The notes below the pieces were generated by a model. It ran no database searches, was not told where the DNA came from, and saw only the letters and a list, made by a program, of their open reading frames with translations. Below, piece after piece: positions 14,395-41,363 of a DNA stretch of 41,363 nucleotides. Every line of letters begins with the position of its first letter. Within the stretch, counting starts at the first letter, position 1. Source of the DNA: Microcystaceae cyanobacterium (GTDB lineage Bacteria > Cyanobacteriota > Cyanobacteriia > Cyanobacteriales > Microcystaceae); NCBI GenBank assembly GCA_051439665.1, contig JBFRWQ010000162.1:1-41363 (forward strand), written 5' to 3'. A program made the translations under genes and the position numbers.

Positions 14395-14735
14395 ATGACA
14401 TTAAGACTTACAGTCATCTTTGTCTGTTAATTTTAGCGATGAGCGCTATTTCTCCTACCTCCTCACAAACCATTTATATAAACCATCAGCACTAAGATTC
14501 AGAGATTTTAAGAATAGTTTAGTTTTTGATTCTTCTCTGAGAACTTTTGTTAATATGTCGCCATACTTTATCAAATTAGCCATTGCAAAGTAACCTCTTG
14601 ATTAAGATAGTAAACAATTATAGTCGTTTAAAATAAGTTTGAGACACCCAGAATGTAAGCATCTTGCTCACTATCACAACAACAAACGATGAGGTTTAAA
14701 ATCAGAAAAGAAACTTTAACCAGATATCACACAGA

Positions 14736-17297
14736 ATGCCTAACCTCTACTTTGACACTGAAAAAAACAATCGTAAATCTTTTGAACTCCCTGGCGCTAA
14801 ACCCCATTATAATCCTGATCGCCCTGGTCAAGTTAACCACATATTTCTGGATTTAAGCCTAGATATTCCTAATAAATCCTTTCAAGGCATCTGTCATATA
14901 ACCTTAACCCCTGTACGTCGAGGAATCACTCAATTAACCCTAGATGCAGTCAATCTCAACATCACCTCAGTGTTAATAGATGAGATCAGTCAACCCTTTG
15001 ACTACGATGGCGAAAAACTGGTTATTCAACTCTTAAAACCCACAACTGAGCAAACTTGCGTTCTTTCTATTGCTTATAACGTTTCTCATCCCCAACGGGG
15101 ACTATACTTTATCGCACCTGATGAACACTATCCTAACAAACCTACCCAGGTGTGGACTCAAGGGGAAGACGAAGACTCCCGCTTCTGGTTTCCTTGTTTT
15201 GACTATCCTGGCCAGTTAGCAACATCAGAAATTCGAGTAAAAGTCCCTAAACCTTACCTTGCTATCTCTAATGGCGAGTTAATAGCCACAGAAGATCAAG
15301 GAGAGGAAATTATCTATCACTGGTCACAAAAACAGGTACATCCTACCTATTTAATGACCTTAGCCGTGGGTGACTTTGCCGAAATCAAAGATAGTTGGAA
15401 CGACATTCCTGTCACCTATTATGTAGAAAAAGGACGAGAAGCAGATGGACAGCGTAGCATGGGTAAAACCCCTGACATGATAGCCTTTTTTAGCGAGAAA
15501 TTTGGTTATCCTTATCCTTACCCTAAATATGCTCAGGTGTGCGTGGATGACTTCATTTTTGGCGGAATGGAGAATACTTCTACTACTTTGTTAACCAATC
15601 GCTGTTTATTGGATGAACGGGCTACCATTGATAATATGCGGACAGAAAGCTTAGTCGCCCATGAATTAGCCCATCAGTGGTTTGGCGATTTGGTGGTAAT
15701 CAAACATTGGTCACACGCATGGATTAAAGAAGGAATGGCTTCTTATTCAGAGGTATTGTGGACTGAGAAAGAATATGGCAAGGATGATGCCGCTTATTAC
15801 CTCTTAGGAGAAGCAAGAAGCTATTTACAAGAAGATTCTAGTCGGTATCGTCGTCCTATTGTGACGAATGTTTACCGAGAAGCGATCGAATTATATGATC
15901 GTCATTTGTATGAAAAGGGCGCTTGTGTTTATCATATCATTCATACCATCTTAGGCAGTGAGTTATTTGATAAAGCGATTCATACTTTTGTCCAGGAGAA
16001 TGCCCATAAAACGGTTGAAACCATCGATTTATTACGAGCCATTGATCAAGCAACTGGATATAATCTTATGTTTATCTTTGATCAATATGTCTTTCGAGGT
16101 GGACATCCTGATTATAAGGTGGGATATAGTTGGGATGGTGATAGTAATCTCGCTAAATTAACCGTTACCCAAACCCAAGGCAAAGAGGATGAAAAAGCAT
16201 TATTTGATTTAAAAATTCCTATTGCATTTGGTTATGTTGATGGTGATGTCACTCAGAAAACCTTTACCTTGCGTATCTATGAATATGAGCAGAGTTTCTA
16301 TTTTCCCTTAGAGAAGAAACCTGATTTTATTAGCTTCGATGTGGGCAACAATTTCTTAAAAACCGTTGAATTAGAATACCCAATTGCTGAATTAAAGGCA
16401 CAATTAAAGCATGATCCCGATCCCATTGCCCGTATCTACGCAGGAAAAGCGCTGGCTAAAAAAGGCGGTTTAGAAGTAATTGAAGCGCTAAAAAGCAGTT
16501 TAACCAAAGATCCCTTTTGGGGAGTCCGTCTAGAGTCAGCCAAGCACCTTGCAACCATTAAATTAGATCAAGCAGGTGGCGCTTTAATAGAAGGATTGCA
16601 GGATAAAGACGCAAAAGTGCGTCGTGCAGTGATAGGGGGCTTAAGTAAGATTAAAACCCTGCAAAGTTATGAACACATCAAGCAGACTCTAGAAAATGGA
16701 GATCCCAGTTACACAGTAGAGTCAACTACAGCCCGTTGTTTAGGGAGTATGGTATCAGGTAATTTGAAAGAAAAAGAGTCAGAAGTAATTGAAATCTTGC
16801 AAAAAGTTTTAAAAGAACGTGCAGGATGGAATGAAGTGGTACGATCAGGTGCAATTGGTGGTTTAAGTCAGCTTAAGACTTCTCCCGTTGCAGTAGATGT
16901 CATTGCAGAATACACTAAATTAGGAACACCTCAACCTTTACGGTTAGCTGCTATCCGTGCATTAGGAAGTATTTCTACGGGACAAACTCCCGACAAATTA
17001 GAGGCAATTTTAGAACAATTAGAAGCTATTTCCCAAGAGAGTTTCTTCTTAACTCAAGTTGCCGTTTCTGGTGCATTGGGACAGATGGAAACAGCCAAAG
17101 CAGTCTCTATTCTACAAAGTTTAGCAGACCAAACCCCCGATGGCCGAGTGCGACGGAAGGCTGAGGAAGCAATGGGTAAAGTACGGAAGAAACTAGGATC
17201 TGATAAGGAGCTTAAGTCATTACGGGAGGATTTAGATCAACTGAAGCAAGAAAATCAGCAGTTAAAAAGTCGTTTAGCTAAGTTAGAAGCTAAGTAA
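14736..17297 (+). CDS. M1-family aminopeptidase (aminopeptidase N-like) with C-terminal HEAT repeats and a coiled-coil tail
   Basis: GGMEN exopeptidase motif, HELAHQWFGD...E zinc motif, C-terminal repeats (DPxxxVRxxAxxxLG) and a terminal heptad-like LKSLREDLDQLKQENQQLKSRLAKLEAK. Confidence 0.85.
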   Translation: MPNLYFDTEKNNRKSFELPGAKPHYNPDRPGQVNHIFLDLSLDIPNKSFQGICHITLTPVRRGITQLTLDAVNLNITSVLIDEISQPFDYDGEKLVIQLLKPTTEQTCVLSIAYNVSHPQRGLYFIAPDEHYPNKPTQVWTQGEDEDSRFWFPCFDYPGQLATSEIRVKVPKPYLAISNGELIATEDQGEEIIYHWSQKQVHPTYLMTLAVGDFAEIKDSWNDIPVTYYVEKGREADGQRSMGKTPDMIAFFSEKFGYPYPYPKYAQVCVDDFIFGGMENTSTTLLTNRCLLDERATIDNMRTESLVAHELAHQWFGDLVVIKHWSHAWIKEGMASYSEVLWTEKEYGKDDAAYYLLGEARSYLQEDSSRYRRPIVTNVYREAIELYDRHLYEKGACVYHIIHTILGSELFDKAIHTFVQENAHKTVETIDLLRAIDQATGYNLMFIFDQYVFRGGHPDYKVGYSWDGDSNLAKLTVTQTQGKEDEKALFDLKIPIAFGYVDGDVTQKTFTLRIYEYEQSFYFPLEKKPDFISFDVGNNFLKTVELEYPIAELKAQLKHDPDPIARIYAGKALAKKGGLEVIEALKSSLTKDPFWGVRLESAKHLATIKLDQAGGALIEGLQDKDAKVRRAVIGGLSKIKTLQSYEHIKQTLENGDPSYTVESTTARCLGSMVSGNLKEKESEVIEILQKVLKERAGWNEVVRSGAIGGLSQLKTSPVAVDVIAEYTKLGTPQPLRLAAIRALGSISTGQTPDKLEAILEQLEAISQESFFLTQVAVSGALGQMETAKAVSILQSLADQTPDGRVRRKAEEAMGKVRKKLGSDKELKSLREDLDQLKQENQQLKSRLAKLEAK

Positions 17298-17489: not shown

Positions 17490-18278
17490 CTACTTTATCC
17501 AGATAGGTTGAGGAGAAGTATCATATTTACGAAGAATTTCTTTCGCTACTTTTTTGCTTAAAATATCAGATTTATAATTTTTCATTATTTTACTTGTGGA
17601 CATCATTGATCTTGATAATAAGAGAGAAACAGCTTCCTTTTTTTGATCATTGTTCAAATGAATAACTTTATCTAATCTTAAAAAAGTTTTGGCAATTTGT
17701 TCCCAAATCATAATTTCTGACTCAGGTTCAATATCTCTTGAAAAATTATCAATATGATCTTTAAGATTATCATTAAATACATCTCTCAAAATATTAAAAA
17801 TTATTTCTATTCGTTGTTTTTGTTGTTGGGTTAAGTTGCTAGTTCCAATAGGTGAAGGAACTAAACGATCAAGGTTTACTAATATGGTAAATGAATCGTC
17901 ATAAGACTCTTTGAATATCAAATCATTTTTTTCTTCTTGTTGATTATTAATGACTATTATATTATGAACTTCTAAATTACACTTCTTGTTGATTTTTATA
18001 CAAATATCATAAATTACCTTTTTGGCAACTTTTATTGAAACAATGAAAAACTCTCTCCTGTGATTAACTCTATAAGAGTTTAATGTTTCATGAATTTGTT
18101 TTTCTGCTAAACTGCAATCAGCAACTTTACAAGCCAAAGCAACTGTAAAAGGTTCAGGAACACCCGTTGTAAATAATTCCTTCCCTCGAATATTAGGTTC
18201 TCTGGTTGTCATACCAATTTTCACAACATTATGCCCAAATGATTCATTTTGCAATAAATAAATGTAACCTTCCTTCAT
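17490..18278 (-). CDS. T5orf172 / MUG113 (GIY-YIG superfamily-like) domain protein with an uncharacterised C-terminal helical region
   Basis: N-terminus GYIYLLQNESFGHNVVKIGMTTREPNIRGKEL...PEPF...HETLNSYRVNHRREFF matches the T5orf172 pattern. AAGGAG Shine-Dalgarno before the ATG. Very AT-rich. Confidence 0.65.
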   Translation of the reverse strand: MKEGYIYLLQNESFGHNVVKIGMTTREPNIRGKELFTTGVPEPFTVALACKVADCSLAEKQIHETLNSYRVNHRREFFIVSIKVAKKVIYDICIKINKKCNLEVHNIIVINNQQEEKNDLIFKESYDDSFTILVNLDRLVPSPIGTSNLTQQQKQRIEIIFNILRDVFNDNLKDHIDNFSRDIEPESEIMIWEQIAKTFLRLDKVIHLNNDQKKEAVSLLLSRSMMSTSKIMKNYKSDILSKKVAKEILRKYDTSPQPIWIK

Positions 18279-19008: not shown

Positions 19009-20526
19009 TTAAATACTTTTATTCCAATATTCCAACCCTGTTATGATCACTTCTTCTAACCACTTTTTAAACCGCTCTATCAGTATATTTTCTTGATCAG
19101 CATAAGAAAATTGAAAAGGTGAATCTATTAATGCCTGTATATCTCCAATATTATAGTCATTATCTTCCGTATTGTTTTTATGATAAGCACAAGCAGAACA
19201 AACTAATAACCCTCGATATTCATGTCCTAAACTATGAAATGAAATAAGAATAATTGTCGGTACAGCAACATCAATCACTAATTGAATCCATTGATGATAA
19301 GTTTGAGTATTAGCAAAGTATTTGAGTTGTTTAGCCGTTTCTATCACCTGATAACGATGGTAATAAGACTTAGAATTATCATCAGGTGAGACGGTTATAA
19401 AAACATCAGCATTATCTATTATATTTTGAACCGATAATTTTATTTCGTCAGTAATTTCAGTCAAGCGCTGACAAGCTATATCAAACAACTGAGATGCAAA
19501 TTTTTCTACTGTACGATATTTATCGGTAATTGATGCTGTTTGATTTTGTTTCAGTTTATCAGCAATAGAAGCAAGAATAATTTGCGTGCGTTTTGCTTCT
19601 GACAATACTTGTTCTGATAATCCTAAACTTTGTATAAAAGCCTGTTTTTGACTTTTAGAAAATAAGTTAATTAAATGAGATAAGTCACCTTGATCTGCTT
19701 TTTCCAACGCCTCAATATAAATTTTTCGATCATCTCTATTAACAACTAAAGGAAACCATTCTGCTTGAATAAAAACTAAACTAGCTAGACATCTAGCTAC
19801 TCGACCATTTCCGTCTTGAAAAGGATGAATTTGTGTAAAACGATGATGTAACCATGCAGAATCGACTTCAGGCGACACTTTCTGCTGACAATGTTGATGA
19901 TGTAGTTCTATTAGTCTATCCATTTCTGATTGAACCTGTTCAGGGGGACAATATTCATGAATCAAACCATCATCTCTCATGGGATTATTAGGCTGTTTTT
20001 TCCAATCACCACTAATTAAGGAAATCCGAGTTAATGCTCCCGTAGAAGGTATTAATGCTTCTGTATAATCTTGATTTTGCGTTAATAACTGATGAATTTG
20101 TTTAATATAAAAAGTAGATAAGGTTCTTTGTCCACCGACAAAATCAAATAAGCCTGTTATGGCAGCTTCTTGATCTTTAATTAAAGCGACAACTTGTTTA
20201 ACAGAACGATCTGTTGTTCCATGAGGAATTAAAGCTTCATCGATTCCTTGTTCAATTAATAAACGAGTAATTCCTCGATCAATTGTATAGAGTCGTTCAA
20301 TAATTCCTGTCTCAATTGCTATCTCTCGACGCAATCTATCCATGAAAGTTTGAAATTCTCCAGATGAGCGAAGTCGATCTGCTTGTTCTTCCCATACTTT
20401 CACTAATGGGGGTAACTCATCATTGGCCAGAGATCGCCAATTATTCGGTAAATCTTCAATTGGTTTCCAATTCATATCTATTACTTCTCGATTTGCTTTA
20501 TATGTTGAGCATAACATACGGAACAT
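19009..20526 (-). CDS. Fic-domain protein (predicted AMPylase or related NMP-transferase) with a ~200-aa uncharacterised C-terminal extension
   Basis: Canonical Fic motif HPFQDGNGRVAR. 505 aa from the first ATG. An alternative start MNWKPIEDL lies at 20475. Confidence 0.85.
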   Translation of the reverse strand: MFRMLCSTYKANREVIDMNWKPIEDLPNNWRSLANDELPPLVKVWEEQADRLRSSGEFQTFMDRLRREIAIETGIIERLYTIDRGITRLLIEQGIDEALIPHGTTDRSVKQVVALIKDQEAAITGLFDFVGGQRTLSTFYIKQIHQLLTQNQDYTEALIPSTGALTRISLISGDWKKQPNNPMRDDGLIHEYCPPEQVQSEMDRLIELHHQHCQQKVSPEVDSAWLHHRFTQIHPFQDGNGRVARCLASLVFIQAEWFPLVVNRDDRKIYIEALEKADQGDLSHLINLFSKSQKQAFIQSLGLSEQVLSEAKRTQIILASIADKLKQNQTASITDKYRTVEKFASQLFDIACQRLTEITDEIKLSVQNIIDNADVFITVSPDDNSKSYYHRYQVIETAKQLKYFANTQTYHQWIQLVIDVAVPTIILISFHSLGHEYRGLLVCSACAYHKNNTEDNDYNIGDIQALIDSPFQFSYADQENILIERFKKWLEEVIITGLEYWNKSI

Positions 20527-27291: not shown

Positions 27292-28914
27292 ATGTTAGAA
27301 CAAATGATGAGAATGATGGTAGGTCAACAAATTGGCTCTTATCATCTGGATAAATTTATTGGTGTTGGTGGATTTGGAGGTGTATTTGAAGCCAGTGAAA
27401 GGGTAAGAAATGTAATTGTGAAAAAGGTAGCACTGAAAATAATTCCCGATAACAGTGATGCACAATTATTGGAATTATTAGCAGCGAGAGAGTTAGATCA
27501 TCTTAATTTAGTGCGTTCTTATAATGCAGGGGAATGTGAGATTATGAAGATAGAAATGCTCTATTTAGCGATGGAGTTAGCGCAGGAAAGTTTAGATAAA
27601 CGGATAGACAATGGAAGATTTTCTACGGATGAGGTAATGTTAATTACCCAACAAGTGGCACATGGTTTAAGCTATCTACATGGTAAAGATAAGGCGCATC
27701 GAGATTTAAAACCAGCTAATATTTTAAGGGTTGATCAGCAATGGAAGTTATCAGATTTTGGTTTAATTCGACAATTAGATAGTCAAAGTTATATTCAAAC
27801 AATGAATGTGGGGGGGACAATCGCTTATATGCCTCCTGAAGCATTTGAGGGGGAAATTTCCTCAGCATGGGATATGTGGTCATTGGGTATCATGTTGGTG
27901 GAAATAATTACAGGTAACTTGCCTTATGAGTTTAAAGATGGTAATCAATTATTAGCAAAAGTAACCAATGGTGATTTAAAGTTACCTGCTTTGCCTAAAG
28001 AATTTGAAGCGCTTATCTTAGGGTGTTTGCAACAAGAGAGAAGAAAAAGATGGACAGCGCAACAGGTGTTAAATGGGTTGCACTCAGAAGTTAAGGTTTA
28101 TCCTCAAGCGATTGTTCCTTCACCTATTCCTAAACAACAAAAGCAATTGCAAAATTTTACGGAAACGTTTGTTCCTTCACCTCCTCCTAAACAAGAAAAG
28201 CAATTGCAGAATTTTACGGAAATATTACCGAATGGGGTTAAGTTAGAAATGATTGCTATTCCAGCAGGAAGTTTTATGATGGGGAGTAATGATTATCCTC
28301 ATGCGAAACCGATACATAAAGTTACTTTAAAAGCCTTCTATATAGGTAAATATCCGATTACTCAGGCACAATATCAAGCAGTGATGGGAACTAATCCTTC
28401 TAATTTTAAAGGGCGAAATAACCCTGTAGAAAAGGTTAGTTGGAATGATGCACAGGAATTCTGTCGTAAATTATCAGACATGACACAGAAAGGGAAATGC
28501 TATCAACTTTCTAGTGAGTCACAGTGGGAATATGCTTGTCGGGCAAGAAGTGAAGGTAAATGGTGTTTTGGGGACTATAAGGGTCGATTAGAAAACTATG
28601 CTTGGTACTATGGTAATTCTAATCATACAACTCATGCAGTGGGACAAAAGAAACCTAATCATTGGGGGTTGTATGATGTATACGGCAATGTGTGGGAATG
28701 GTGCGAAGATGATTATGTGGATAACTATAGTGATACACCAAGAGATGGTACTGCGTATAATAAAAAGTCAATGAAACAACTTGTAATCCGTGGTGGTTCT
28801 TGGTACGACAATCCTGATAAGTGCTGTTCGGCGTATCGCTACCTCAATTCCCACAACCTCCGCTACGACAGTCTAGGTTTTCGTGTTGTGTGTAATGTCG
28901 GGAGGACTTCTTAG
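27292..28914 (+). CDS. Ser/Thr protein kinase fused to a formylglycine-generating-enzyme (FGE/SUMF1-like) domain
   Basis: Kinase motifs GVGGFGGVFE, VALKII, HRDLKPANIL and DFG (LSDFGL). The C-terminus has NPSNFKG, VSWNDAQEFC, GLYDVYGNVWEWC and RGGSW. Confidence 0.85.
   Translation: MLEQMMRMMVGQQIGSYHLDKFIGVGGFGGVFEASERVRNVIVKKVALKIIPDNSDAQLLELLAARELDHLNLVRSYNAGECEIMKIEMLYLAMELAQESLDKRIDNGRFSTDEVMLITQQVAHGLSYLHGKDKAHRDLKPANILRVDQQWKLSDFGLIRQLDSQSYIQTMNVGGTIAYMPPEAFEGEISSAWDMWSLGIMLVEIITGNLPYEFKDGNQLLAKVTNGDLKLPALPKEFEALILGCLQQERRKRWTAQQVLNGLHSEVKVYPQAIVPSPIPKQQKQLQNFTETFVPSPPPKQEKQLQNFTEILPNGVKLEMIAIPAGSFMMGSNDYPHAKPIHKVTLKAFYIGKYPITQAQYQAVMGTNPSNFKGRNNPVEKVSWNDAQEFCRKLSDMTQKGKCYQLSSESQWEYACRARSEGKWCFGDYKGRLENYAWYYGNSNHTTHAVGQKKPNHWGLYDVYGNVWEWCEDDYVDNYSDTPRDGTAYNKKSMKQLVIRGGSWYDNPDKCCSAYRYLNSHNLRYDSLGFRVVCNVGRTS
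28111..28224 (+). repeat. 57-bp (19-aa) in-frame tandem duplication in the kinase-FGE linker
   Basis: IVPSPIPKQQKQLQNFTET / FVPSPPPKQEKQLQNFTEI, at 28111-28167 and 28168-28224. Confidence 0.85.
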
Positions 28915-29549: not shown

Positions 29550-32399
29550 ATGACTGATTCATCCCTCATTCGCATTAAAGGCGCACGACAACATAACCTA
29601 AAAAACATTGATCTCGACCTGACACGGGATCAATTGATTGTTTTTACAGGTGTTTCAGGGTCTGGTAAATCCTCTCTCGCCTTTGATACGATTTTCGCTG
29701 AGGGACAACGGCGATATGTAGAGTCATTAAGCGCTTATGCACGGCAATTCTTAGGTCAATTAGATAAACCAGATGTAGATGCAATTGAGGGGTTGAGTCC
29801 TGCGATTTCCATTGATCAGAAATCTACCTCCCATAATCCTCGTTCTACGGTGGGAACAGTCACAGAGATTTACGATTACTTACGTTTACTCTTTGGTCGA
29901 GCAGGAGATCCCCATTGTCCTCATTGTCAGCGTAGCATTGCCCCCCAAACCATTGATCAAATGTGCGATCGCATCATGGAATTACCAGATCGTACCCGTT
30001 TTCAGATTCTTGCGCCAGTGGTTAGGGGCAAAAAGGGAACACATAAGCAACTACTATCTAGTTTAGCCTCTCAGGGATTTGTGCGAGTTAAAATTAACGG
30101 TGAGGTACGAGAATTATCAGATAACATCGAATTAAAGAAGAACCATAAACACGATATTTTTATTATTATTGATCGCTTAATTAAAAAAGATGATCTACAA
30201 GAAAGATTAGTTGATTCTTTAGGGACTTGTTTAAAACAATCAGAGGGAATTGCTGTTATTGATTTAACCGTCAATACTGATCTAAAAGAGAAAGACTTAC
30301 CCTCAGAAATTGTCTTTTCCGAAAACTTTGCTTGTCCCGAACATGGGGCGGTAATGGAAGAATTATCCCCTCGTTTATTTTCCTTTAATTCTCCCTATGG
30401 CGCTTGTCCCCATTGTCATGGTTTAGGGAGTTTAAGAACCTTTTCCCCTGAGTTAATTATACCAGATCCAACTAAGCCTTTATATGCAGCGATCGCACCT
30501 TGGTCAGAAAAGGAAAGTTCTTATTATCTCTCTCTCTTAAACAGTCTAGCAGAAACTTTTGGCTTTGAATTATCTACGCCTTGGGAAAACTTAACGGAAG
30601 AACAAAAACACCTCTTACTCTATGGTTCAGATGAGCCAATCTGGTTTAGTGAAGATTCTAGGTATAATAAAGAGAATGGCTATTATCGTAATTTCAAGGG
30701 GATTTTACATATCTTAGATAAAAATTATAAGGACACCAGTTCTGATTTAATTAAGCAGAAATTAGAAAAATATATTGTTAATCAAACCTGCGAAGTTTGC
30801 GAGGGTAAGCGCTTAAAACCCGAAGCCTTATCCGTTACATTGGGACAGTGCAATATTACTGATTTAACAGGGGTATCGATTAGAGAAACCTTAACCAAAA
30901 TTGAACAGTTAGAATTAACCCCAAGACAAAAATTAATTGGAGAATTAGCGCTAAGAGAAATCAAAGCCAGGTTACAATTTCTCCTAGATGTGGGCTTAGA
31001 TTATCTTACCTTAAATCGGTCAGCCATGACCTTATCAGGGGGGGAAGCACAACGAATCAGGTTAGCCACGCAAATTGGTTCAGGGTTAACGGGGGTTTTA
31101 TATGTCTTAGATGAACCCAGTATCGGACTCCATCAACGGGATAATCATCGTCTTTTAACTACACTTAAAAAATTAAGAGATTTAGGTAATACTTTGATTG
31201 TGGTTGAACATGATGAAGATACCATCCGCAGTGCAGATTATATTATTGATATTGGACCCAAAGCTGGCATTCATGGAGGTGAAATTATTAGTCAAGGGGA
31301 TTTTAAAACCTTATTAAAAGCTAAAGATTCCTTGACAGGTGCTTATTTATCTGGTAAGCAAAAGATAGAAACACCAGCAGAAAGACGTAATGGCAAAGGA
31401 AAATCCTTAATCTTAAAAGGCTGTTCTCAAAATAACTTAAAACAGATTAATGTAGAAATTCCATTAGGCAAATTAGTGTGTATAACAGGGGTTTCAGGGT
31501 CAGGAAAATCCACCCTAATTAATGAAATATTGCACCCTGCACTGCAACATAACTTAAGTAAAAATGTTCCTTTCCCCAAGCATTTACAAGACATTCAGGG
31601 GTTAAATTTTATTGATAAAGTAATCGTAATTGATCAATCTCCTATTGGACGCACCCCTCGCTCTAATCCTGCCACTTATACAGGAATCTTTGATGCTATT
31701 AGAGCCATTTTTGCCGAAACCATTGAAGCAAAAGCCAGAGGATATAAAGCAGGTCGCTTTTCCTTTAATGTTAAAGGAGGACGGTGTGAAGCTTGTTCTG
31801 GTCAAGGTGTTAATGTCATTGAAATGAACTTTTTACCCGATGTTTATGTCCAGTGTGATGTATGTAAAGGGGCAAGATATAACCGTGAGACTTTGCAAGT
31901 TAAATATAAAAATTATTCCATTGCCGATGTTTTAAATATGACCGTAGAAGAAGGATTAAAAGTCTTTGAAAATATTCCTCGTGCCGTCAAGCGCTTGCAA
32001 ACCTTAGTTGATGTGGGCTTAGGGTACGTTAAATTAGGGCAACCCGCACCCACTTTATCAGGAGGAGAAGCACAACGAGTCAAATTAGCCTCAGAATTAT
32101 CACGACGTGCCACAGGAAAAACCCTTTATTTAATTGATGAACCCACCACAGGACTATCTTTTTATGACGTGCATCATCTCCTAAATGTTTTGCAAAGATT
32201 GGTAGATAAAGGGAATTCTATTGTGGTGATTGAACACAATTTAGATGTGATTCGTTCTTGTGATTGGATTATTGATTTAGGACCCGAAGGAGGAGATAGG
32301 GGAGGAGAAGTTATTGTTACAGGAACCCCTGAAACGGTTGCCAATCATCCAACCTCTTATACAGGGAAGTATTTAAAGCCTTTACTACAGCTAAAATGA
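29550..32399 (+). CDS. uvrA: Excinuclease ABC subunit A
   Basis: IRIKGARQHNLKNIDL, two Walker A sites (GVSGSGKSSL, GVSGSGKSTL), ABC signatures LSGGEAQR twice and zinc modules. 949 aa. Confidence 0.95.
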   Translation: MTDSSLIRIKGARQHNLKNIDLDLTRDQLIVFTGVSGSGKSSLAFDTIFAEGQRRYVESLSAYARQFLGQLDKPDVDAIEGLSPAISIDQKSTSHNPRSTVGTVTEIYDYLRLLFGRAGDPHCPHCQRSIAPQTIDQMCDRIMELPDRTRFQILAPVVRGKKGTHKQLLSSLASQGFVRVKINGEVRELSDNIELKKNHKHDIFIIIDRLIKKDDLQERLVDSLGTCLKQSEGIAVIDLTVNTDLKEKDLPSEIVFSENFACPEHGAVMEELSPRLFSFNSPYGACPHCHGLGSLRTFSPELIIPDPTKPLYAAIAPWSEKESSYYLSLLNSLAETFGFELSTPWENLTEEQKHLLLYGSDEPIWFSEDSRYNKENGYYRNFKGILHILDKNYKDTSSDLIKQKLEKYIVNQTCEVCEGKRLKPEALSVTLGQCNITDLTGVSIRETLTKIEQLELTPRQKLIGELALREIKARLQFLLDVGLDYLTLNRSAMTLSGGEAQRIRLATQIGSGLTGVLYVLDEPSIGLHQRDNHRLLTTLKKLRDLGNTLIVVEHDEDTIRSADYIIDIGPKAGIHGGEIISQGDFKTLLKAKDSLTGAYLSGKQKIETPAERRNGKGKSLILKGCSQNNLKQINVEIPLGKLVCITGVSGSGKSTLINEILHPALQHNLSKNVPFPKHLQDIQGLNFIDKVIVIDQSPIGRTPRSNPATYTGIFDAIRAIFAETIEAKARGYKAGRFSFNVKGGRCEACSGQGVNVIEMNFLPDVYVQCDVCKGARYNRETLQVKYKNYSIADVLNMTVEEGLKVFENIPRAVKRLQTLVDVGLGYVKLGQPAPTLSGGEAQRVKLASELSRRATGKTLYLIDEPTTGLSFYDVHHLLNVLQRLVDKGNSIVVIEHNLDVIRSCDWIIDLGPEGGDRGGEVIVTGTPETVANHPTSYTGKYLKPLLQLK

Positions 32400-33272: not shown

Positions 33273-35150
33273 CTAAATAGCTTCTAATCGCTTTCTAGAC
33301 ACCCTAACTAATCGATAGGGTAGTTTCTCAGTAATAATTTTATACTCAGAAGGTTGTAACTTCAATTCATTGATTTGATTAGATTCACCAAGTAACAAAA
33401 TAGTCTCAGGATAGTCAGGTGTATCAGGAATATTGGTCAGAAATTGTTTGGCGGGATCATTTTCATCGCCGTAGATTGACCAAAAATAGCCAACAGTTTC
33501 ATGGGAATAAAACGTAATAGTGGGTTTTTTGAAGCCAATCATCATAATTTGTTCCTTGGGTTGCTTGACTTCTGTAATTACCTCAGCAATCTCTCTTAAC
33601 GGCAATTGACGAACTTGATCAACCATAATGTTAATCGGTTGCACGAAAAAGACAATAAAGCCGAGAAACCCAATGATATTGCTCACAATAATCCAGCGCC
33701 ATTGTCGTCGATTTAACCAGAAGAAGAGACTTAAAATAGCAGTAATTAACCAGATACTTGCACTCACTAAAGGAAGGGGTGATTGACCTAAAAGAGAGGA
33801 TAACTGATCCATTGCCGAATCTGTTCCGATTAATTTAGGTAAGGCTAAAGAACCAATACTCAGGGCAATTAAGAGTAATAAATTAAACCCGATACTGATA
33901 GAAAGAAATCGAGTTTGTTTAGGGCGATAACTTCCTGTTGCCCAACTAAATTCTTGACTCCAAGTTAGGGTCACTAGGTAAGCTGCTGCTGGAATGAGGG
34001 GTAAAGTATAACTAGGAAGTTTGGTGACAGCAACTGAAAAGAAAACAAAGATAACAGTAAACCACCAAAAGGCAAATAAGCCTAATTGACTCTGACGGGG
34101 TTGTTGCTGCCAAAAATCACGCTTCCCAAGGCGCAATCGAATCATACTGAGGGGTAAATAGATTGACCAGGGGGCAAACATTCCTAAGACAATGATAAAG
34201 TAAAAATACCAAGGAGCAGAATGTCCATTCACCACACTGGTAAACCGTTCAAAGTTATGATAGCCAAAAAAGGAATCAATATAAGCCTGACCATTTTCGA
34301 CAATTACTAAGATATACCAGGGAACAGTCACAGCTAAAAAGATTAACGTTCCCCAGACTAAACCCATTTCTTGAAACAGAACTTTTTGCCAGTTTCCTAC
34401 ATAAAATAGAAAGGCTAAAATAATCATCCCTGGCAGTACAAATCCCACCGGTCCCTTGGTTAAAACCGCTAATCCTGTTATGATATAAAAGGCTAAATAC
34501 CACCGATTAGAAATAGGCGTGAAGAGATTAAATTTATCTTCCTTTTCTTCTGAAGTATTAGATGTAGCGTACCCCCAGAAAAAGCAAAGGAGGGCTGCAC
34601 CAATACACCCACTCAGCAGCATATCAGAGACCCCTTGATGAGACCATAGTAAAGTTTGTAGATTGAAAGCCACTAAGGTTGAACCAATCCAGGCAGAAAT
34701 CCATAATTGGCGCTGTACTCTAGGGGTAGAAATTTGTTCAGGTGTAGCAGCCGCAGGGGTAGCAAAACCAAACTTTTTGAGAACAAAAAAGGAAAATACC
34801 GTTAAAGCGATCGCAGCTAAAGCAGAGGGTAATCTCACCGCCCATTCATTAACCCCTATGATCTTATAACCAATAGCCATCAGCCAATAAACCAAGGGCG
34901 GTTTATCAAAACGGGTGACTTCGTTAAAATAAGGAGTAATCCAATTTCCTGTGACAGTCATCTGACGGGCGGCCTCAGCAAAAAGAGGTTCAGTTTCATC
35001 AATTAGTCCCGTCGAACCTAAATTAAGAATAAAGGCAGCAAAGTTAACTAAAACAAGCCATGCTATGGAAAACCCCCAAGTGAAGTTAGCATTTTTCTCA
35101 AAATGATGCCATAGGGGTTGATGTGTGTGTTTTTCTTCTAAACGAGTCAT
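33273..35150 (-). CDS. Family 39 glycosyltransferase (ArnT/PMT-like polytopic membrane protein)
   Basis: DETEPLFAEAARQM...RFDKPPLVYWLMA loop motif and more than 10 predicted TM segments. The ORF-track start at 35189 is TTG, so I prefer the ATG at 35150 (MTRLEEKH). Confidence 0.8.
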   Translation of the reverse strand: MTRLEEKHTHQPLWHHFEKNANFTWGFSIAWLVLVNFAAFILNLGSTGLIDETEPLFAEAARQMTVTGNWITPYFNEVTRFDKPPLVYWLMAIGYKIIGVNEWAVRLPSALAAIALTVFSFFVLKKFGFATPAAATPEQISTPRVQRQLWISAWIGSTLVAFNLQTLLWSHQGVSDMLLSGCIGAALLCFFWGYATSNTSEEKEDKFNLFTPISNRWYLAFYIITGLAVLTKGPVGFVLPGMIILAFLFYVGNWQKVLFQEMGLVWGTLIFLAVTVPWYILVIVENGQAYIDSFFGYHNFERFTSVVNGHSAPWYFYFIIVLGMFAPWSIYLPLSMIRLRLGKRDFWQQQPRQSQLGLFAFWWFTVIFVFFSVAVTKLPSYTLPLIPAAAYLVTLTWSQEFSWATGSYRPKQTRFLSISIGFNLLLLIALSIGSLALPKLIGTDSAMDQLSSLLGQSPLPLVSASIWLITAILSLFFWLNRRQWRWIIVSNIIGFLGFIVFFVQPINIMVDQVRQLPLREIAEVITEVKQPKEQIMMIGFKKPTITFYSHETVGYFWSIYGDENDPAKQFLTNIPDTPDYPETILLLGESNQINELKLQPSEYKIITEKLPYRLVRVSRKRLEAI

Positions 35151-35251
35151 GCGATCGCTAAACTCCCCACAAAATAGGTACTGGATCAAAATTTTAACTT
35201 ACAGTACAATGTGTCGTCTGGTCTAGTCTTTGTTCCCAAGGATTAGTTTTT

Positions 35252-35314
35252 CAGTGACCAGTGACCATAAATTCATAATTCATAATTTATAATTCATAAT
35301 TTATAATTCATAAT
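35252..35314. repeat. Nine in-register heptanucleotide repeats: (CAGTGAC)x2 then CATAAAT and (TCATAAT/TTATAAT)x6
   Basis: Read directly as CAGTGAC CAGTGAC CATAAAT TCATAAT TCATAAT TTATAAT TCATAAT TTATAAT TCATAAT. The array lies in the divergent promoter region between the GT39 gene and the hydrolase gene. Confidence 0.9.
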
Positions 35315-35356
35315 TTTGCGTTATGTTAAGAAGCAGTATTTTTTATTGTTTAATCA

Positions 35357-36253
35357 ATGACCATGACTGCCCAATTACTCCCGACTCCCCAACTAGATAT
35401 CTTGACCTGGAACTGGCAAAATCACGCCATAAAATACACAGTAATGGGTGAAGGCCAGCCTTTACTGCTCATTCATGGGTTCGGCGCTTGTATTGGTCAT
35501 TGGCGCAAAAATATACCTGTTTTAGCTCAACAAGGCTATCAAGTCTTTGCGATCGACTTATTAGGGTTTGGAGGTTCAGATAAGCCACAACAGGACTATA
35601 CCCTAGAACTTTGGCAAGCTCAAATCAAAGACTTTTGGAGCGCTAAGATTGGAGAACCGACTGTATTTGTTGGTAACTCCATTGGGGGACTATTAAGCTT
35701 AATGTTAATGGCTAATTATCCCGAAATCACGGCAGGAGGTGTGGTCATTAACTGTGCAGGAGGCTTAAATCATCGCCCTGATGAGTTAAATCTTCCTTTA
35801 CGCTTAATCATGGGAGGATTTAGTCGTTTAGTTAGTTCTCCTATCACAGGAAAGTTTGTTTTTAATACTGTTCGCCAAAAATCTCGTATCCGTAATACCT
35901 TATACCAAGTTTATCGAGATAGAGAAGCAGTAACAGATGAATTGGTGGAAATGCTTTATCAGCCGTCTTGTGATACAGGCGCACAACAGGTATTTGCCTC
36001 AGTTATTACCGCACCTGCAGGAGATAAACCCTCAGACTTACTTCCTAAGATTCAATCTCCCTTGTTGGTGTTATGGGGAGAAGATGATCCCTGGACTCCC
36101 ATTAAAGGGGCAAAAATTTACCAAGAACGGGCAAAAGGTAACTTCAATACAGAATTTTATGCCATTCCTCAAGCTGGCCACTGTCCCCATGATGAGAAAC
36201 CTGAACAGGTTAACCTGTTTATTGTTAATTGGTTAGAACAGAAGTTTGCTTGA
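35357..36253 (+). CDS. Alpha/beta-fold hydrolase
   Basis: HGFG oxyanion region, nucleophile elbow GNSIGG and C-terminal GHCPHDE (catalytic His). 298 aa. Confidence 0.8.
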   Translation: MTMTAQLLPTPQLDILTWNWQNHAIKYTVMGEGQPLLLIHGFGACIGHWRKNIPVLAQQGYQVFAIDLLGFGGSDKPQQDYTLELWQAQIKDFWSAKIGEPTVFVGNSIGGLLSLMLMANYPEITAGGVVINCAGGLNHRPDELNLPLRLIMGGFSRLVSSPITGKFVFNTVRQKSRIRNTLYQVYRDREAVTDELVEMLYQPSCDTGAQQVFASVITAPAGDKPSDLLPKIQSPLLVLWGEDDPWTPIKGAKIYQERAKGNFNTEFYAIPQAGHCPHDEKPEQVNLFIVNWLEQKFA

Positions 36254-36503
36254 TGAGCGATCTATCCATCATTCTTATTTGGACTCAGGCAGTTTTAAAC
36301 TTGTATTTTAAAAGATTATGACATAAAAACAGATAAAATCTTTTTTATAACGTCTTTCAAGTTTTGCCTGAACTCCTTTTTCAATTAAGGGGATAATCTC
36401 CTGAAACTGCATAATATTACAAGTTTTAGCAGTCGTAGGGTAGGCAAACGAAAAAGATATAAAATGATGATAATTACCCGAAAAGTTTGCCCACTATCCC
36501 CCA

Positions 36504-36665
36504 TTACGTTTTATCAATGACAATATAAAGTCTTTCTTTATAACTAAATTCTTCTAATCGCACTTTTCTGTAAATTTGAAGCAATTGTCCCACTATAATT
36601 AGCATCAAATACTCAGATTTGTTGAGACAGGTTGTTAAATGATTTGTATAATTTTTAGGTAACAT
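36504..36665 (-). pseudogene. Possible remnant of the N-terminus of an IS4-like transposase (53-aa ORF)
   Basis: MLPKNYTNHLTTCLNKSEYLMLIIVGQLLQIYRKVRLEE resembles the N-terminal L..L...QYL.L..LV.LLQ..K.V.LE pattern of cyanobacterial IS4-family transposases that I remember. It then diverges and stops. No inverted repeats identified. Confidence 0.35.
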
Positions 36666-36811
36666 TTCGTTCAATAGAGGTGATCGCTCCGATAGACTAC
36701 TTTTCTTTCTATCACAGTTGCCTCTTTTTGTGACCCCATAAGGCTTTCAGCCATCCTTGTCCCCCCTTCAGCACTGCTTGTTGCCGATCAAAAGAATAAG
36801 AGGTACTAAAA

Positions 36812-39160
36812 ATGCCAATTGGACAAATTGAAGGACTTCTCAATCCACAAGGTAAGATAGCTAGTTCTAGTTGTCTGTTCTTTAATGACGAGCAAAATCA
36901 AAAATATATTGATAGTAAAAAAATGACAGGGGAATTAAAAAAAATACTCAATTTTCTTTCTCAAGAAAAACGACTGTATGTAAAATTTGACTTAGATCCT
37001 GAGAATGAGGTGAGGAATATAAAGTTATATAAGGCATTGGGGGTTATTACCTTATATAAAGTAAAAAAAGATAAATTAGATAAACTAGACAAACAAGAAT
37101 CCCCCATTAAGATATATATTGAATGGGATAACCAAAAAGATATTTTTCCTATTTTTCTTCCGTTTTTTCATTATTATTATCATGATTTAAGCAACACAGA
37201 TATTGTGGTTTTTATACCCTGTTATATTCCAGAATCTAAGAAATATGAGGCAATTGACATTCAAAAATGTGAACATTATTTTTGTAAAGCGAATCAGGAA
37301 TTGATAAAAACATCTATTAGTAGTTCGCTTTCTGAAGTTTCTTTATTCTCACTGCGCTCATATATACATACATTTGAAGAAGAAGAAAAAGAAGCGATTG
37401 ACTTGATACTATCAGCAACAAAGAAAATGTCCATTGAACATCAAAAGCAAATTATACAAGAAATTCAAAAAGACAAAACAAGCTTGTTACTACACTCATT
37501 TCCACTAAGGGAAATTTTACAGCAATTTAAAGAAAACTATGTTAAATTTTTAAATGAACATTTAATAGTAGATAACAAGAATAAAGAAGAATTAGAGAAT
37601 AAGAAAGATTTGATACGAGAACTACATTTGTATCTACAAAAAATCAATGAAGCAGAAAGAAAAGAATTCTGGCAGCAAATTGATTATTTAAAAACAACGT
37701 TAAGATATAAATTTACTTTTTGGAATACTACACCAATTGAATATAAAATAGAAATCGTAAAAAGACGATTTACACAATTTTTTGTTCTTGTTGAGCAGTT
37801 TTCAACGTCAACTTATCCCTATGAAAAATATATCAATCAAGAATGGCACAAATTATATAAATTTGACGATTTCGATCAAAAATTAATTTTAGAATGGTTA
37901 CGGAAAGAATCAGGAAACAAAGATTATTCTGAGGCTAGAATGCTTTCAGCAAGGGGGGCTGAAAAATTAGTCATCAACTATTATGAAAGCTTAGGTGATC
38001 AAGTTGAAGATGTTTCAATTCAGCAAGTTAAATTAACAACAAGTCAAGATTGGAAGTTAGGAGATATTCGTATTAATTCTAAGGAATTACTTGATGTGAA
38101 AAATGCACGAAAGGATAGAAATTCAAAAGTTTATTCAGAATTCTGCATTCCAAAATTTAAACAAGATGAGAAGAATCAACGAGATGTAAAAATTATTGCT
38201 GTAAGTTCTCCCTATCTTCAATTGTCATTTATCAAGGGTACTGATACTCCTCCGTCTAATTGGTATATTTCAAGCCCAATCATATTAGGAGAATTTGATG
38301 ATAGCCAACTTATAAAGTTAAAAGATTTTTTTAACAGTGATCTTATTCAGTTAGATATGTCGAGAGGCTTGGAATTAGATCGAAACACTTATTTACCGCC
38401 TTGGATATTTGATTACAGTGATAAATTTTATTCTGAACAAATCAACATTAGTGAACAATTTAGTGAGTTATGGTATGATGAAATACCTGAATATGAAGAT
38501 ATAGAACTAATGAAGAATAGTTTCCTTGATTCATGCTTATCTCTCTTTGTTATTAGTCGTAGAGATTTACCAGAATCATGGCAATTAAATTTACCTGATT
38601 GGAAGTGTAAATTTATTGAACAATTAAATAGTCGCCCTAATGAACGTCTGACTTTACCTTATCTATATCTTTCATTATTAAAACACTTTTTAATAATGCT
38701 ATCTGAACCAGAAAGTGATTATCAACCACAAGCCTATAGAGAAATTCTTGACTTGTCTAGTGGTCATCTAGATAAAAAGCCGTTAAAAATTTACGATCCA
38801 TTAAGTATGATTGAGGATTTATGTAAGTCATTACAAATCTTATGGCAACACCGTCACAAATATGACTTAACGGAATTTAGGATATTTAAGTTTAGTGGTA
38901 GAGGTTTGCTACGAGGTAAACGAAATCAATCCCAACAAAAATATACGACTATTATGGCATTCTGTGGAGGCGATGTATATAAAGATAATATATATAACAG
39001 TAAAAACTATCAAGGAAAATGTGGATTTACTCCTTTAGTGATTGGACAAAACGATACTTGTGAAACCTGTCAACTATTAATTTGTCCTGAATGTGGTGAT
39101 TGTCTCTGTCAAAGAACAAAAATAGACAAAATAAAAAACTTGCAGTACTATCCCACCTAA
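36812..39160 (+). CDS. Hypothetical 782-aa protein with a central PD-(D/E)XK-like nuclease motif and a C-terminal Cys cluster
   Basis: AAGAGG Shine-Dalgarno before the ATG. The central segment reads ARGAEKLVINYYESLG...DWKLGDIRINSKELLDVKNARKD (E / D / DxK, nt ~37950-38115). The C-terminus reads CETCQLLICPECGDCLC (nt 39059-39112). Very AT-rich, with no P-loop. Confidence 0.7.
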   Translation: MPIGQIEGLLNPQGKIASSSCLFFNDEQNQKYIDSKKMTGELKKILNFLSQEKRLYVKFDLDPENEVRNIKLYKALGVITLYKVKKDKLDKLDKQESPIKIYIEWDNQKDIFPIFLPFFHYYYHDLSNTDIVVFIPCYIPESKKYEAIDIQKCEHYFCKANQELIKTSISSSLSEVSLFSLRSYIHTFEEEEKEAIDLILSATKKMSIEHQKQIIQEIQKDKTSLLLHSFPLREILQQFKENYVKFLNEHLIVDNKNKEELENKKDLIRELHLYLQKINEAERKEFWQQIDYLKTTLRYKFTFWNTTPIEYKIEIVKRRFTQFFVLVEQFSTSTYPYEKYINQEWHKLYKFDDFDQKLILEWLRKESGNKDYSEARMLSARGAEKLVINYYESLGDQVEDVSIQQVKLTTSQDWKLGDIRINSKELLDVKNARKDRNSKVYSEFCIPKFKQDEKNQRDVKIIAVSSPYLQLSFIKGTDTPPSNWYISSPIILGEFDDSQLIKLKDFFNSDLIQLDMSRGLELDRNTYLPPWIFDYSDKFYSEQINISEQFSELWYDEIPEYEDIELMKNSFLDSCLSLFVISRRDLPESWQLNLPDWKCKFIEQLNSRPNERLTLPYLYLSLLKHFLIMLSEPESDYQPQAYREILDLSSGHLDKKPLKIYDPLSMIEDLCKSLQILWQHRHKYDLTEFRIFKFSGRGLLRGKRNQSQQKYTTIMAFCGGDVYKDNIYNSKNYQGKCGFTPLVIGQNDTCETCQLLICPECGDCLCQRTKIDKIKNLQYYPT

Positions 39161-39297
39161 ACCTATTACCACTGTAATAGCTATTCCTGTTCGCCAAGCT
39201 GTTTTATTCATTTTTAAAACTCTCTTTGAGAGAAGATGAATGACTCTCTCGGTATTATCGTGCAACTTACATACAATACTTTTATGTTCTAAAAAGA

Positions 39298-39657
39298 TCA
39301 GCGATCGCCGTAAACCATCCGTTCATCTACTCGCATTTCAATGGGTTCTTCTTGTTGGGAAGGGGAATAGACTTTAATTCTAGCGCTTGTGGCTAATGGT
39401 TCTAATAGATTAGCTAGGGCATTCATCCCATTTAAAACACGCCAATTAATCACCGAATTGGGACAAATAATTACCAATGTCAGTGCATTTCCATAACTGG
39501 TAATATACCATTCACATAAAGACAGCAATGCCTTTGTTTCTGCATCACATTGTTCATCAAAATAATAAGTGGTGGCATCATCTAATTGTTGACGCAATTC
39601 TTGATCAAAGGTATCAACTTGGGAAGACGGTAAATCATCGGTTGAAAGATAGTTCAT
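39298..39657 (-). CDS. Small acidic hypothetical protein (119 aa from the ATG at 39657)
   Basis: The ORF-track start at 39699 is TTG and adds a hydrophobic leader, so I prefer the ATG (MNYLSTDDLPSSQ...). It is co-directional with the SagB-like gene and lies immediately downstream of it. Confidence 0.55.
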   Translation of the reverse strand: MNYLSTDDLPSSQVDTFDQELRQQLDDATTYYFDEQCDAETKALLSLCEWYITSYGNALTLVIICPNSVINWRVLNGMNALANLLEPLATSARIKVYSPSQQEEPIEMRVDERMVYGDR

Positions 39658-39682
39658 AAGACAAGATACAAGGTAGAAAAAC

Positions 39683-40984
39683 TTACTGGCCAATAGCAAG
39701 GGTATATAAAACCGCTTGATCTGTTTCTAACAAAGCTTGCGTTTCATCATCATAATAAGCGCCAATTCCGCTACATTGGAGATTGAGCATTTGACTAATG
39801 AGATATAAACGATGGCCTAACCATCCCGCCCATTGCATCGCTGTTTGATAGTTGTGATAGTCACTGGTGATCAAGAAATTAACAGCGCTATCTCTAGCTA
39901 ACGCTTGATTCACGCATAGGTATTTACATTTTTCTGTGAAGTCTCCTTCCTTAATTAATTGACCTTTCAAATAGATACCTGATGTTAATCCTTCTACTCG
40001 ATTAATGACATAATAGATATTTAACTCTTCTACTTGATGAGTGGGTAACGGTTGTTGGATAAAAGATAAAACCTCTCTGAATTGCTCCTGAGAAATAGTT
40101 CCTTCTTTAAACCGTCTAACAGAACGTCTGTTCATAATAGACGTTTTCAGATGCTCTAAATTATAGTCTAATAAATCAGGAGACTTAATACTTTGAAAAG
40201 AAGAGACTTGATCACAGCTTGTTTCTTGGTATCCCTTTTCAATAAACCTATTGGCTTCAAAGTAATCAGTTGCACAAACAAAAGGAATCGATGAATGTAA
40301 AGGTTTAACTGATTTATCTTTAAATTCCCCTGACAAGACGCAAGCGGTAATAAATTCCTTATTTTCTAACCCTAACACTTGATTAAGCGCCAACTTATCA
40401 AACTCAAATAAGACTTGTGTTTCTCTTTGATGCGCCCATCCCGATGCTTCAATAGCGCCAATATGATGGCCACTATCTAAAAAGCAATAACGCAAACTTC
40501 TATTTTTATATTTCCAACTTGAACGAAAATAAGAACAAGAAATCAAAAAGATCACCCCTTTAATCATGCCTTGCGGAAACAAATATGCTTCTAATCCATC
40601 ATCAATCAGTTCATAAATTAAGGTTAACGAATTCGTATCAACCTCTAAGTGATAAATCCCATCAATTAATCCTTTCCTTCCTCTGATTTGGACATAAATC
40701 TCGGTCGGATATAATGCACCTGCTGAGGGAATGACTCTGAGAGAATATTCCCCCTCTCGATACATTTTTTGAAAGGAAATACAACTGGTTAAGTGAACAA
40801 AAGAATCGATCACATTGTCAGTTTCTAAAGGAAACCGACGATAAAACGCAGGATAATGTTTGAAGACAGTCGGTTGGGTAGATGAATCGACATAATTAGG
40901 GTCAATCATCACCGACAAGTAAGAGTGTTTCGTCGCTTCATGAAAGGGATGACCGACTTTAGTAAGTTCAAGCGTTTCTAACAT
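39683..40984 (-). CDS. SagB/ThcOx-family dehydrogenase (SagB-type domain plus nitroreductase-like domain)
   Basis: FHEATKHS near the N-terminus, PSAGALYPTEIYV (SagB-type signature), and a second half starting IMNRRSVRRFKEG (nitroreductase-type). Confidence 0.7.
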   Translation of the reverse strand: MLETLELTKVGHPFHEATKHSYLSVMIDPNYVDSSTQPTVFKHYPAFYRRFPLETDNVIDSFVHLTSCISFQKMYREGEYSLRVIPSAGALYPTEIYVQIRGRKGLIDGIYHLEVDTNSLTLIYELIDDGLEAYLFPQGMIKGVIFLISCSYFRSSWKYKNRSLRYCFLDSGHHIGAIEASGWAHQRETQVLFEFDKLALNQVLGLENKEFITACVLSGEFKDKSVKPLHSSIPFVCATDYFEANRFIEKGYQETSCDQVSSFQSIKSPDLLDYNLEHLKTSIMNRRSVRRFKEGTISQEQFREVLSFIQQPLPTHQVEELNIYYVINRVEGLTSGIYLKGQLIKEGDFTEKCKYLCVNQALARDSAVNFLITSDYHNYQTAMQWAGWLGHRLYLISQMLNLQCSGIGAYYDDETQALLETDQAVLYTLAIGQ

Positions 40985-41363
40985 TTTTTAACAGTTTTAA
41001 AATCTCAAAAGTGCTGGCAAAATCAGTGGCGGTAAAATCATCTAGATTCTTTAAATTAGGATTAGCCCCTAACTCCAGTAACTGTTGTAAAATCTCAATT
41101 TTACCTGCTGATGCAGCGTACATTAAGCAAGTAACCCCATTGCCATTTTGATTATCAATACTAATATTTGAGTTAACCAAATAAGTAATTAATTCAGCTT
41201 GATTTTTCACACAAGCATACCAAAGGGCATTATTACCATCATCATTGGTCAGGTTAATATTTGCCCCTGCTTCAACTAAAGCCTGAACAATCGGCAGATT
41301 TCCGTCTTTGGTAGCGCTCATCAGCGCTGTATCCTGATTATATCCTCTTTGATCTAAATCATC
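40968..41363 (-). CDS. Ankyrin-repeat protein, 3' part (the gene continues beyond the window end)
   Basis: Repeats of G.TALM.A...G...IV..L...GA..N type (DGNNALWYACVKNQAELITYLV; NGVTCLMYAASAGKIEILQQLLELGANPN). The frame stays open to position 41363. Its stop overlaps the SagB-like start by 17 nt. Confidence 0.75.
   Translation of the reverse strand, partial: DDLDQRGYNQDTALMSATKDGNLPIVQALVEAGANINLTNDDGNNALWYACVKNQAELITYLVNSNISIDNQNGNGVTCLMYAASAGKIEILQQLLELGANPNLKNLDDFTATDFASTFEILKLLKNVRNA

Follow-up and report, generated by a model that had tools for sequence, protein, structure and literature searches.

The subject of this study is a gene of 782 codons at positions 36812–39160 of the forward strand of contig JBFRWQ010000162.1 (assembly GCA_051439665.1) from a Microcystaceae cyanobacterium; we refer to the whole 41,363-nucleotide stretch of DNA that was analysed as the window. 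By sequence comparison, the gene belongs to a large, unnamed and mostly cyanobacterial family of stand-alone proteins. Its product combines two N-terminal cold-shock/OB domains, a helical domain, a nuclease core of the PD-(D/E)XK type, a second helical domain and a module with eight cysteines. Residue invariance and structural models make it very likely that the protein is an active nuclease of the PD-(D/E)XK type, which recognises single strands through its OB folds and carries a zinc module that is either structural or nucleic-acid-binding. The explanation that we favour, with about as much confidence as doubt, is that of a single-protein nuclease directed by single strands of nucleic acid, which probably serves in the defence against phages or other mobile DNA.

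Nuclease core and flanking domains

A restriction-endonuclease-like core in the middle of the protein and a cysteine cluster at its end had already been proposed from the letters of this DNA and their translations, in what we call the sequence-only reading, and both proposals held up. The core spans residues 370–540 (37919–38431, +), and is supported by invariance, secondary-structure order and Foldseek comparisons. The three stretches on which the proposal had been built, ARGAEKLV (residues 380–387), LGDIRI (416–421) and LLDVKNAR (426–433), contain the putative catalytic residues E384 (codon at 37961–37963, +), D418 (38063–38065, +), D428 (38093–38095, +) and K430 (38099–38101, +). Among 78 homologues, A380, R381, E384, D400, Q405, D418, D428, K430, N431 and R433 are invariant or nearly so, and the first eight of these are 100% invariant in 135 extra representatives with a mutual identity below 50%, which bring the members compared to ~213 in all. 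E384, D400, Q405, D418, D428 and K430 are 100% invariant among the 78 homologues as well. The codon of D400, which is thus likewise invariant, lies at 38009–38011 (+).

In an AlphaFold2 model of the full protein, which was computed from the 78-sequence alignment (mean predicted local distance difference test score (pLDDT) 86.4, predicted template modelling score (pTM) 0.77), two β-barrels (residues 1–83 and 100–152) are followed by a helical region (155–365), an α/β core (370–515), a second helical domain (541–679), a Cys-rich β domain (691–744) and a terminal helix. A Foldseek search of PDB with this full-length model was dominated by the tandem cold-shock domains of Unr, which hid the nuclease core, and we therefore folded residues 340–540 separately (pLDDT 89.1, pTM 0.87). 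In both models, E384 lies on a helix (370–393), D418 just before a strand (419–421) and D428-V-K430 in a hairpin strand (425–434); as modelled, the core is a PD-(D/E)XK fold with the canonical E / D / DxK arrangement.

The presence of a nuclease fold at residues ~370–430 is also reflected in structural comparisons. Against the predicted viral structures of BFVD, the core had eight Foldseek matches at E < 1e-3 (best E 2.6e-5, probability 1.00), with template modelling (TM) scores of up to 0.50/0.60. Phage models of the restriction-endonuclease type were matched at E 2.6e-5 to 6.5e-4, and two of the eight are annotated as ‘Restriction endonuclease’; among the weaker matches are a NOV_C domain protein and a phage DNA endonuclease IV. 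The top 50 matches in PDB are mostly known PD-(D/E)XK enzymes, such as influenza PA-N, HincII and EcoRV, and the list also contains NhoI/Eco15I restriction-enzyme domains, but none of these matches is significant on its own (best E 0.057, TM ~0.3). In searches of Pfam, NCBIfam and PADLOC, the core had zero matches, even with the family consensus at E ≤ 10, and single-sequence scans of the window protein against Pfam, PADLOC, NCBIfam and PDB were equally empty. At the sequence level, we therefore regard the family as an undescribed one within the PD-(D/E)XK superfamily. It shares with the generic fold the α-β-β-β-α-β topology and the placement of the key residues (E in the first helix, D where strand 2 begins, DxK in strand 3), but is set apart by the extra invariant residues S379-A-R381, D400, Q405, N431, R433, K450 and S466, by the absence of a match to any Pfam nuclease family and by a modest structural similarity (TM 0.3–0.6).

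The two flanks of the core, which the sequence-only reading had described as matching nothing, turned out to consist of two degenerate cold-shock/OB domains and of helical domains that are conserved in the family. The first cold-shock domain (residues 1–83; 36812–37060, +) was assigned through the family profile, the family consensus and a β-barrel in the model, and the second, CSD/OB-like barrel (98–152; 37103–37267, +) through strands at residues 100–152 of the model and the second cold-shock stretch of the consensus; a low-confidence insert (86–97) precedes it. The family profile matches the cold-shock domain (CSD) structures of YB-1 and CspB in PDB at E 1.5e-5, and the family consensus matches Pfam CSD (PF00313) in two stretches at E 1.7e-12, with 47.4 bits versus a gathering cut-off of 27. 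This Pfam domain is present in 16 of 30 family members scanned and also in many other clusters, and several of the 78 homologues carry a precomputed cold-shock domain annotation. By sequence profile, the N-terminal domains are thus CSDs like CspA, CspB and YB-1, but unlike these they are modules of a ~750-residue enzyme.

The window protein itself had no Pfam match, CSD included; the barrel is kept in its model. In this copy, the WFGG, FGFI and YVH motifs are lost: WFGG has become GLLN (through a deletion), NFGFI has become SCLFF and IYVHR has become KYIDS. A W[FY]G motif occurs in 60 of the 78 homologues, and the CSD motifs are present in most other members. Identity of the window copy to the family consensus amounts to 25% in the CSD region versus 63% in the core. 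Since the window copy is without the canonical aromatic motifs of CSDs, it may recognise its ligand differently or not at all.

Helical domain A (residues 153–369; 37268–37918, +), with helices at 155–365 in the model, connects these barrels to the core. Its last ~90 residues, from residue ~281 onwards, lie within the conserved module of the family and include the conserved W287, Y299, W304 and P308. In a Nostocales subfamily (P0003, P0005–P0009 and P0031, of 1024–1025 and 981 residues), three tandem helical units of ~150 residues precede the nuclease core (repeated unit at columns ~700–1000 of alignment A1: ‘...ERNIYWQQVQYLQDNLAYKNFLWHIAP...’), and the helical segment can therefore be seen as a duplicable module.

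On the other side of the core, helical domain C (residues 541–680; 38432–38851, +) is conserved and seen in the model; it has no recognisable relative and zero Pfam matches. It is followed by the Cys-rich β domain (681–770; 38852–39121, +) with C718, C737, C750, C753, C758, C761, C764 and C766, of which the first seven are invariant in the 135 extra representatives and the last is found in 108 of 110. The terminal cluster of the sequence-only reading, six Cys in the last 35 residues (750, 753, 758, 761, 764 and 766), is thus part of a conserved module of eight. Its pattern, C...C...CxxC-x4-C-x2-4-C-x2-C-x1-3-C, fits two zinc sites; the window copy spaces its last three pairs more tightly than the consensus does. 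Together with weak matches to Pfam DUF2116 (‘probable treble clef’) in 5 of 30 members and with one homologue named ‘FYVE zinc finger domain-containing’ by NCBI, it suggests that the predicted domain is probably a two-zinc module of the treble-clef/ribbon type.

Further hints come from domain fusions. In two clusters, an SSB domain follows C-terminal to the Cys module (Pfam E 3.4e-22), and BLASTP with E. coli SSB places it at residues 766–851 of P0101 and 820–901 of P0090. In one cluster, NERD and a UvrD-type helicase are found N-terminal to the conserved module. The recurring fusion partners of the family, as annotated, thus bind single strands or process nucleic acids.

Family size and genomic locations

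The gene had been taken for an ORFan, which it is not. A word-indexed search found 78 homologues of 33–44% identity. When 1.84 billion cluster representatives were searched exhaustively with a profile, 652 clusters (at 50% identity) scored E ≤ 1e-30 and 829 scored E ≤ 1e-10. All named members among the 78 homologues are cyanobacterial and come from Nostoc, Dolichospermum, Anabaenopsis, Crocosphaera, Synechocystis salina, Limnothrix, Okeania, Trichodesmium and Scytonema; one named member from the profile search comes from a metagenome-assembled genome (MAG) of a Nitrososphaerota archaeon. A second word-indexed search, started from a divergent alignment, yielded no more than 13 sequences, all closely related to the first one of that alignment, and added no taxonomic breadth. 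The best homologue of the window copy among 5.8 billion proteins is only 41–44% identical. According to the profile matches, the conserved unit corresponds to residues ~281–770 of the window protein, and the N-termini are variable, with a top-residue frequency of ~0.5 versus 0.71 in the core. The architecture is found at full length in homologues, so the open reading frame (ORF) is not a fusion artefact.

In the window, the gene is preceded by genes for UvrA, a PMT_2 glycosyltransferase and an alpha/beta hydrolase and followed by a convergent operon for a 133-residue unknown protein, a nitroreductase-family protein and an ankyrin protein, all of which are ordinary chromosomal genes. Orthologues of the hydrolase are 61–89% identical across cyanobacterial orders, the closest one (89%) being that of a Microcystaceae MAG. 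Within 10 kb of an orthologous hydrolase, the candidate gene was found in 0 of 80 genomes. Even in the closest genome, the synteny 3' of the hydrolase differs, and insertion boundaries or an empty site are therefore not definable. The window also encodes, at 27292–28914 (+), a Ser/Thr kinase fused to an FGE-sulfatase (formylglycine-generating-enzyme-like) domain; an ORF of similar appearance, judged by sequence only, lies directly after the hydrolase in the closest MAG (L010, 2751–4523), and this different placement indicates a local rearrangement between these genomes.

At nine further distinct loci, the family gene always stands alone and always in a different location. Including the window, the location thus differs in all 10 distinct loci, and no fixed synteny was seen. 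In [Limnothrix rosea] IAM M-220, the family gene has hmaA on one side and hmaB on the other, within a complete Hma system (PADLOC scores of 6e-199 for HmaA, 2.9e-149 for HmaB and 1.7e-135 for HmaC). This helicase/methylase/ATPase system (L007, 197–17949; 73-kb record CM007612.1) is split by nested modules, namely HicAB, the candidate-family gene, a DUF2281/PIN pair and an MNT/HepT pair. The family gene is found between two HicB-like genes in Dolichospermum, after MNT/HepT and a phage-like block in Synechocystis salina, and before a DUF433/DUF5615 pair in Anabaenopsis.

The gene in its window

The candidate gene (36812–39160, +) is complete, and the ATG start of its 782-codon frame is backed by the N-terminal alignment with homologues. 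The Shine-Dalgarno sequence noted in the sequence-only reading corresponds to a Shine-Dalgarno-like AAGAGG at 36798–36803 (+), 8 nt 5' of the ATG, and the stated lack of an NTPase motif was confirmed (no Walker A in the 782 residues). Two remarks on composition need qualification. The gene is indeed AT-rich, with a guanine-plus-cytosine content (GC) of 29.7%, ~1.9 standard deviations below the mean of the remaining 25 long ORFs in the window (38.4 ± 4.5%), but similarly low values in four or so other ORFs mean that this is not special to it. HIP1 sites are absent from the gene as stated, but this is uninformative, because only 0.85 sites were expected (P(0) = 0.43).

The spacer that separates the candidate gene from the hydrolase gene (36254–36811) measures 558 bp, as reported, and the insertion sequence (IS) scar suspected in it could be identified. 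It holds a decayed N-terminal remnant of an IS4-family transposase gene (36504–36674, −), whose best-matching part (36543–36671, −) corresponds to residues 4–46 of an annotated IS4 family transposase of Gloeothece verrucosa PCC 7822, with 47% identity over 43 residues (E 5e-4 in a tblastn search of 7.3 Gb of plasmids, E 7e-8 pairwise). After an internal deletion follows a second fragment, LYIVIDKT*WG versus LYVAIDRTSWG, which is interrupted by a stop codon. The IS4 identity came from the tblastn search against plasmids; an NCBIfam scan of the spacer peptides gave nothing useful. No repeat copy of the spacer was found in the window or at other family loci, and an Rfam search of 35000–41363 had zero matches. 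Within the IS4 remnant, ~160 nt 5' of the ATG, lies a sigma-70-like promoter match, GAGACA-17-TATAAT (10/12; 36624–36652, +); such matches are no more numerous in the region than expected from shuffling.

Elsewhere in the window, two low-GC ORFs for a T5orf172/MUG113 (GIY-YIG-like) domain protein (17490–18278, −; 28.0% GC) and a Fic/DOC-family protein (19009–20526, −; 33.4% GC) may constitute another accessory or conflict islet. Two adjacent ORFs of 473 residues (7382–8803, +) and 229 residues (8828–9517, +) have the lowest GC of the window (29.8% and 27.5%; 21% and 16% at third codon positions), with zero Pfam matches.

Proposed function, alternatives and significance

Taken together, the sporadic distribution, variable location, low GC and adjacent IS remnant of the gene mark it as accessory and fast-evolving. 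The same follows from a hypervariable N-terminus next to a constrained core, from the high diversity of 652 clusters, and from a best match of 41–44% versus 61–89% for the neighbouring hydrolase. These features argue against a core housekeeping role. In the explanation that we favour, the protein would be a stand-alone, horizontally mobile nuclease that unites sensor and effector in one polypeptide. The N-terminal OB-fold domains, in the family two cold-shock domains, would bind single-stranded nucleic acid and regulate the restriction-endonuclease-fold core, which would cut nucleic acid at a metal-dependent site formed by E384, D418, D428 and K430. The two-zinc Cys8 module and the two helical domains would hold the assembly together or add contacts to nucleic acids or partners. 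Single-stranded nucleic acid of phages, such as replication and recombination intermediates or transcripts, would then recruit or release the nuclease.

A role in defence or abortive infection is supported by the copy embedded in an Hma system and by toxin-antitoxin neighbours, but this support is circumstantial: one locus of ~10 lies inside an Hma system, and three more adjoin toxin-antitoxin modules. Several observations weigh against it. At about half of the loci, the neighbours are only or mostly housekeeping genes, as in Nostoc, at two Okeania loci and in Scytonema; at a metagenomic locus, the family gene directly follows mfd, with uvrB 4 kb away; and a scan with the family profile found no relative on viral contigs, and hence no link to phages. 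Toxin-antitoxin modules are very common in cyanobacteria, so that adjacency to them counts for little. Likewise, zero defence models of PADLOC, Pfam and NCBIfam match the window protein or the family consensus, and the SSB and UvrD fusions fit repair as well as defence. To this come the non-significance of the individual fold matches in PDB and the loss of the RNP1/RNP2-type aromatic residues from the cold-shock domains of the window copy.

The SSB and UvrD fusions lead to the first alternative, which we consider unlikely: a nuclease of DNA repair or recombination, whose OB folds would bind single-stranded DNA at gaps, flaps or stalled forks and which would act as an accessory repair factor. 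It could explain the SSB domains in two clusters and the NERD and UvrD-helicase fusion in another, and it fits several neighbourhoods. The metagenomic locus mentioned above (L091) has mfd directly 5' and uvrB 4 kb 3' of the family gene (repair-gene coordinates 4146–7646, 8001–10751 and 14549–16546), NurA is encoded ~4 kb 5' of another homologue (L004, 4525–5724), and uvrA lies 4.4 kb 5' of the gene in the window (29550–32399). However, uvrA and the hydrolase gene are also linked in many genomes without the gene nearby, so that their proximity in the window may be coincidence, and the category of repair genes was picked after the fact. Furthermore, a sporadic distribution, variable location, low GC and extreme divergence compared to the neighbours are unlike a conserved repair factor.

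Cold-shock domains typically bind RNA, and a second alternative is that they do so here and that the core cleaves RNA, in RNA-level restriction, turnover or processing. The best PDB fold match of the core, the RNA-cleaving endonuclease PA-N of influenza, would agree with this, as would the co-occurrence of a CSD, PD-(D/E)xK and a zinc ribbon in CnuC of CoCoNuT systems, which is predicted to target RNA (PMC11090510). Nevertheless, we judge it distinctly unlikely: the PA-N match is weak (E 0.057), the RNA targeting by CoCoNuTs is itself a prediction (PMC11090510), the SSB and UvrD fusions point to DNA, and there is no HEPN or other RNase partner. Moreover, most PD-(D/E)XK enzymes cut DNA. The defence reading and its rivals partly overlap, as a defence nuclease could, for instance, target RNA.

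We give little credence to a third alternative, that this genome carries a decaying or inactive copy, a relic that a mobile element once brought in. The loss of the N-terminal CSD motifs, the low-confidence insert in the model, the shortened spacing of the Cys cluster and the adjoining IS remnant would fit such a relic. Against this stand an intact frame of 782 codons with a Shine-Dalgarno sequence, the preservation of all family-invariant catalytic and Cys residues, a core that is 63% identical to the family consensus, and a confident model of the whole protein.

Among known systems, the combination of a CSD-like OB fold, a helical domain, PD-(D/E)xK and a CxxC zinc ribbon in one protein is found in CnuC of Type I-A CoCoNuTs (PMC11090510). 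Our family likewise combines CSD-like OB, helical, PD-(D/E)xK and zinc parts. In contrast to CnuC/McrC, it has no DUF2357/DUF524 signal, no Ig-like N-terminal domain and, at the examined loci, no McrB/CnuB GTPase partner, and its CSDs are N-terminal, whereas that of CnuC is inserted in the helix bundle. That the protein is an autonomous, McrB-less relative of McrC/CnuC, the nuclease subunit of Type IV restriction, is very improbable despite these shared domains and a homologue cluster labelled ‘DUF2357 domain-containing’ in UniRef. Profile searches of the window protein, of 30 + 56 members and of the consensus, extended to E ≤ 10, detected neither DUF2357 nor DUF524; the Pfam-annotated neighbours at nine homologue loci and the scanned neighbours in the window showed no McrB-like GTPase; and McrC is not among the top fold matches.

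Shedu (SduA, DUF4263), for which a preprint puts forward the concept of ‘a common enzymatic core regulated by diverse sensor domains’ (bioRxiv 10.1101/2023.08.10.552793), is similar in that one polypeptide unites a PD-(D/E)XK core with variable N-terminal sensor domains, encoded by a stand-alone gene at variable genomic locations. The candidate family differs in its CSD/OB sensors, its two large helical domains and its Cys8 zinc module. Searches at E ≤ 10 gave zero matches to DUF4263 or to the PADLOC set, which presumably includes Shedu. A single-protein restriction-fold nuclease with a modular sensor is therefore a kind already known from Shedu. New with respect to the curated libraries searched are the family, its extra invariant residues and its architecture of CSD, helical, nuclease, helical and Cys8 parts.

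The defence reading can be extended, more tentatively and with considerable doubt on our side, to a widespread unnamed single-gene immune system, concentrated in cyanobacteria, in which the CSD/OB domains would sense single strands of phages. The nucleic acid so sensed would release a new type of PD-(D/E)XK nuclease, whose substrates may include RNA in addition to DNA, and the family would be an McrB-independent counterpart of the RNA-restriction activity that is predicted for CoCoNuTs.

To our knowledge, phage defence in cyanobacteria has been poorly explored by experiment, and few defence systems have been tested in them so far. If the explanation that we favour is true, a family of at least 650 clusters (at 50% identity), which is unnamed in curated libraries, would be defined as a nuclease with a testable active site, and its four catalytic residues and eight cysteines would be immediate targets for mutants. 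Its modular single-strand-binding sensor would provide a model for the coupling of OB-fold sensing to a restriction-fold nuclease, and cyanobacteria would gain one more candidate single-gene defence system.

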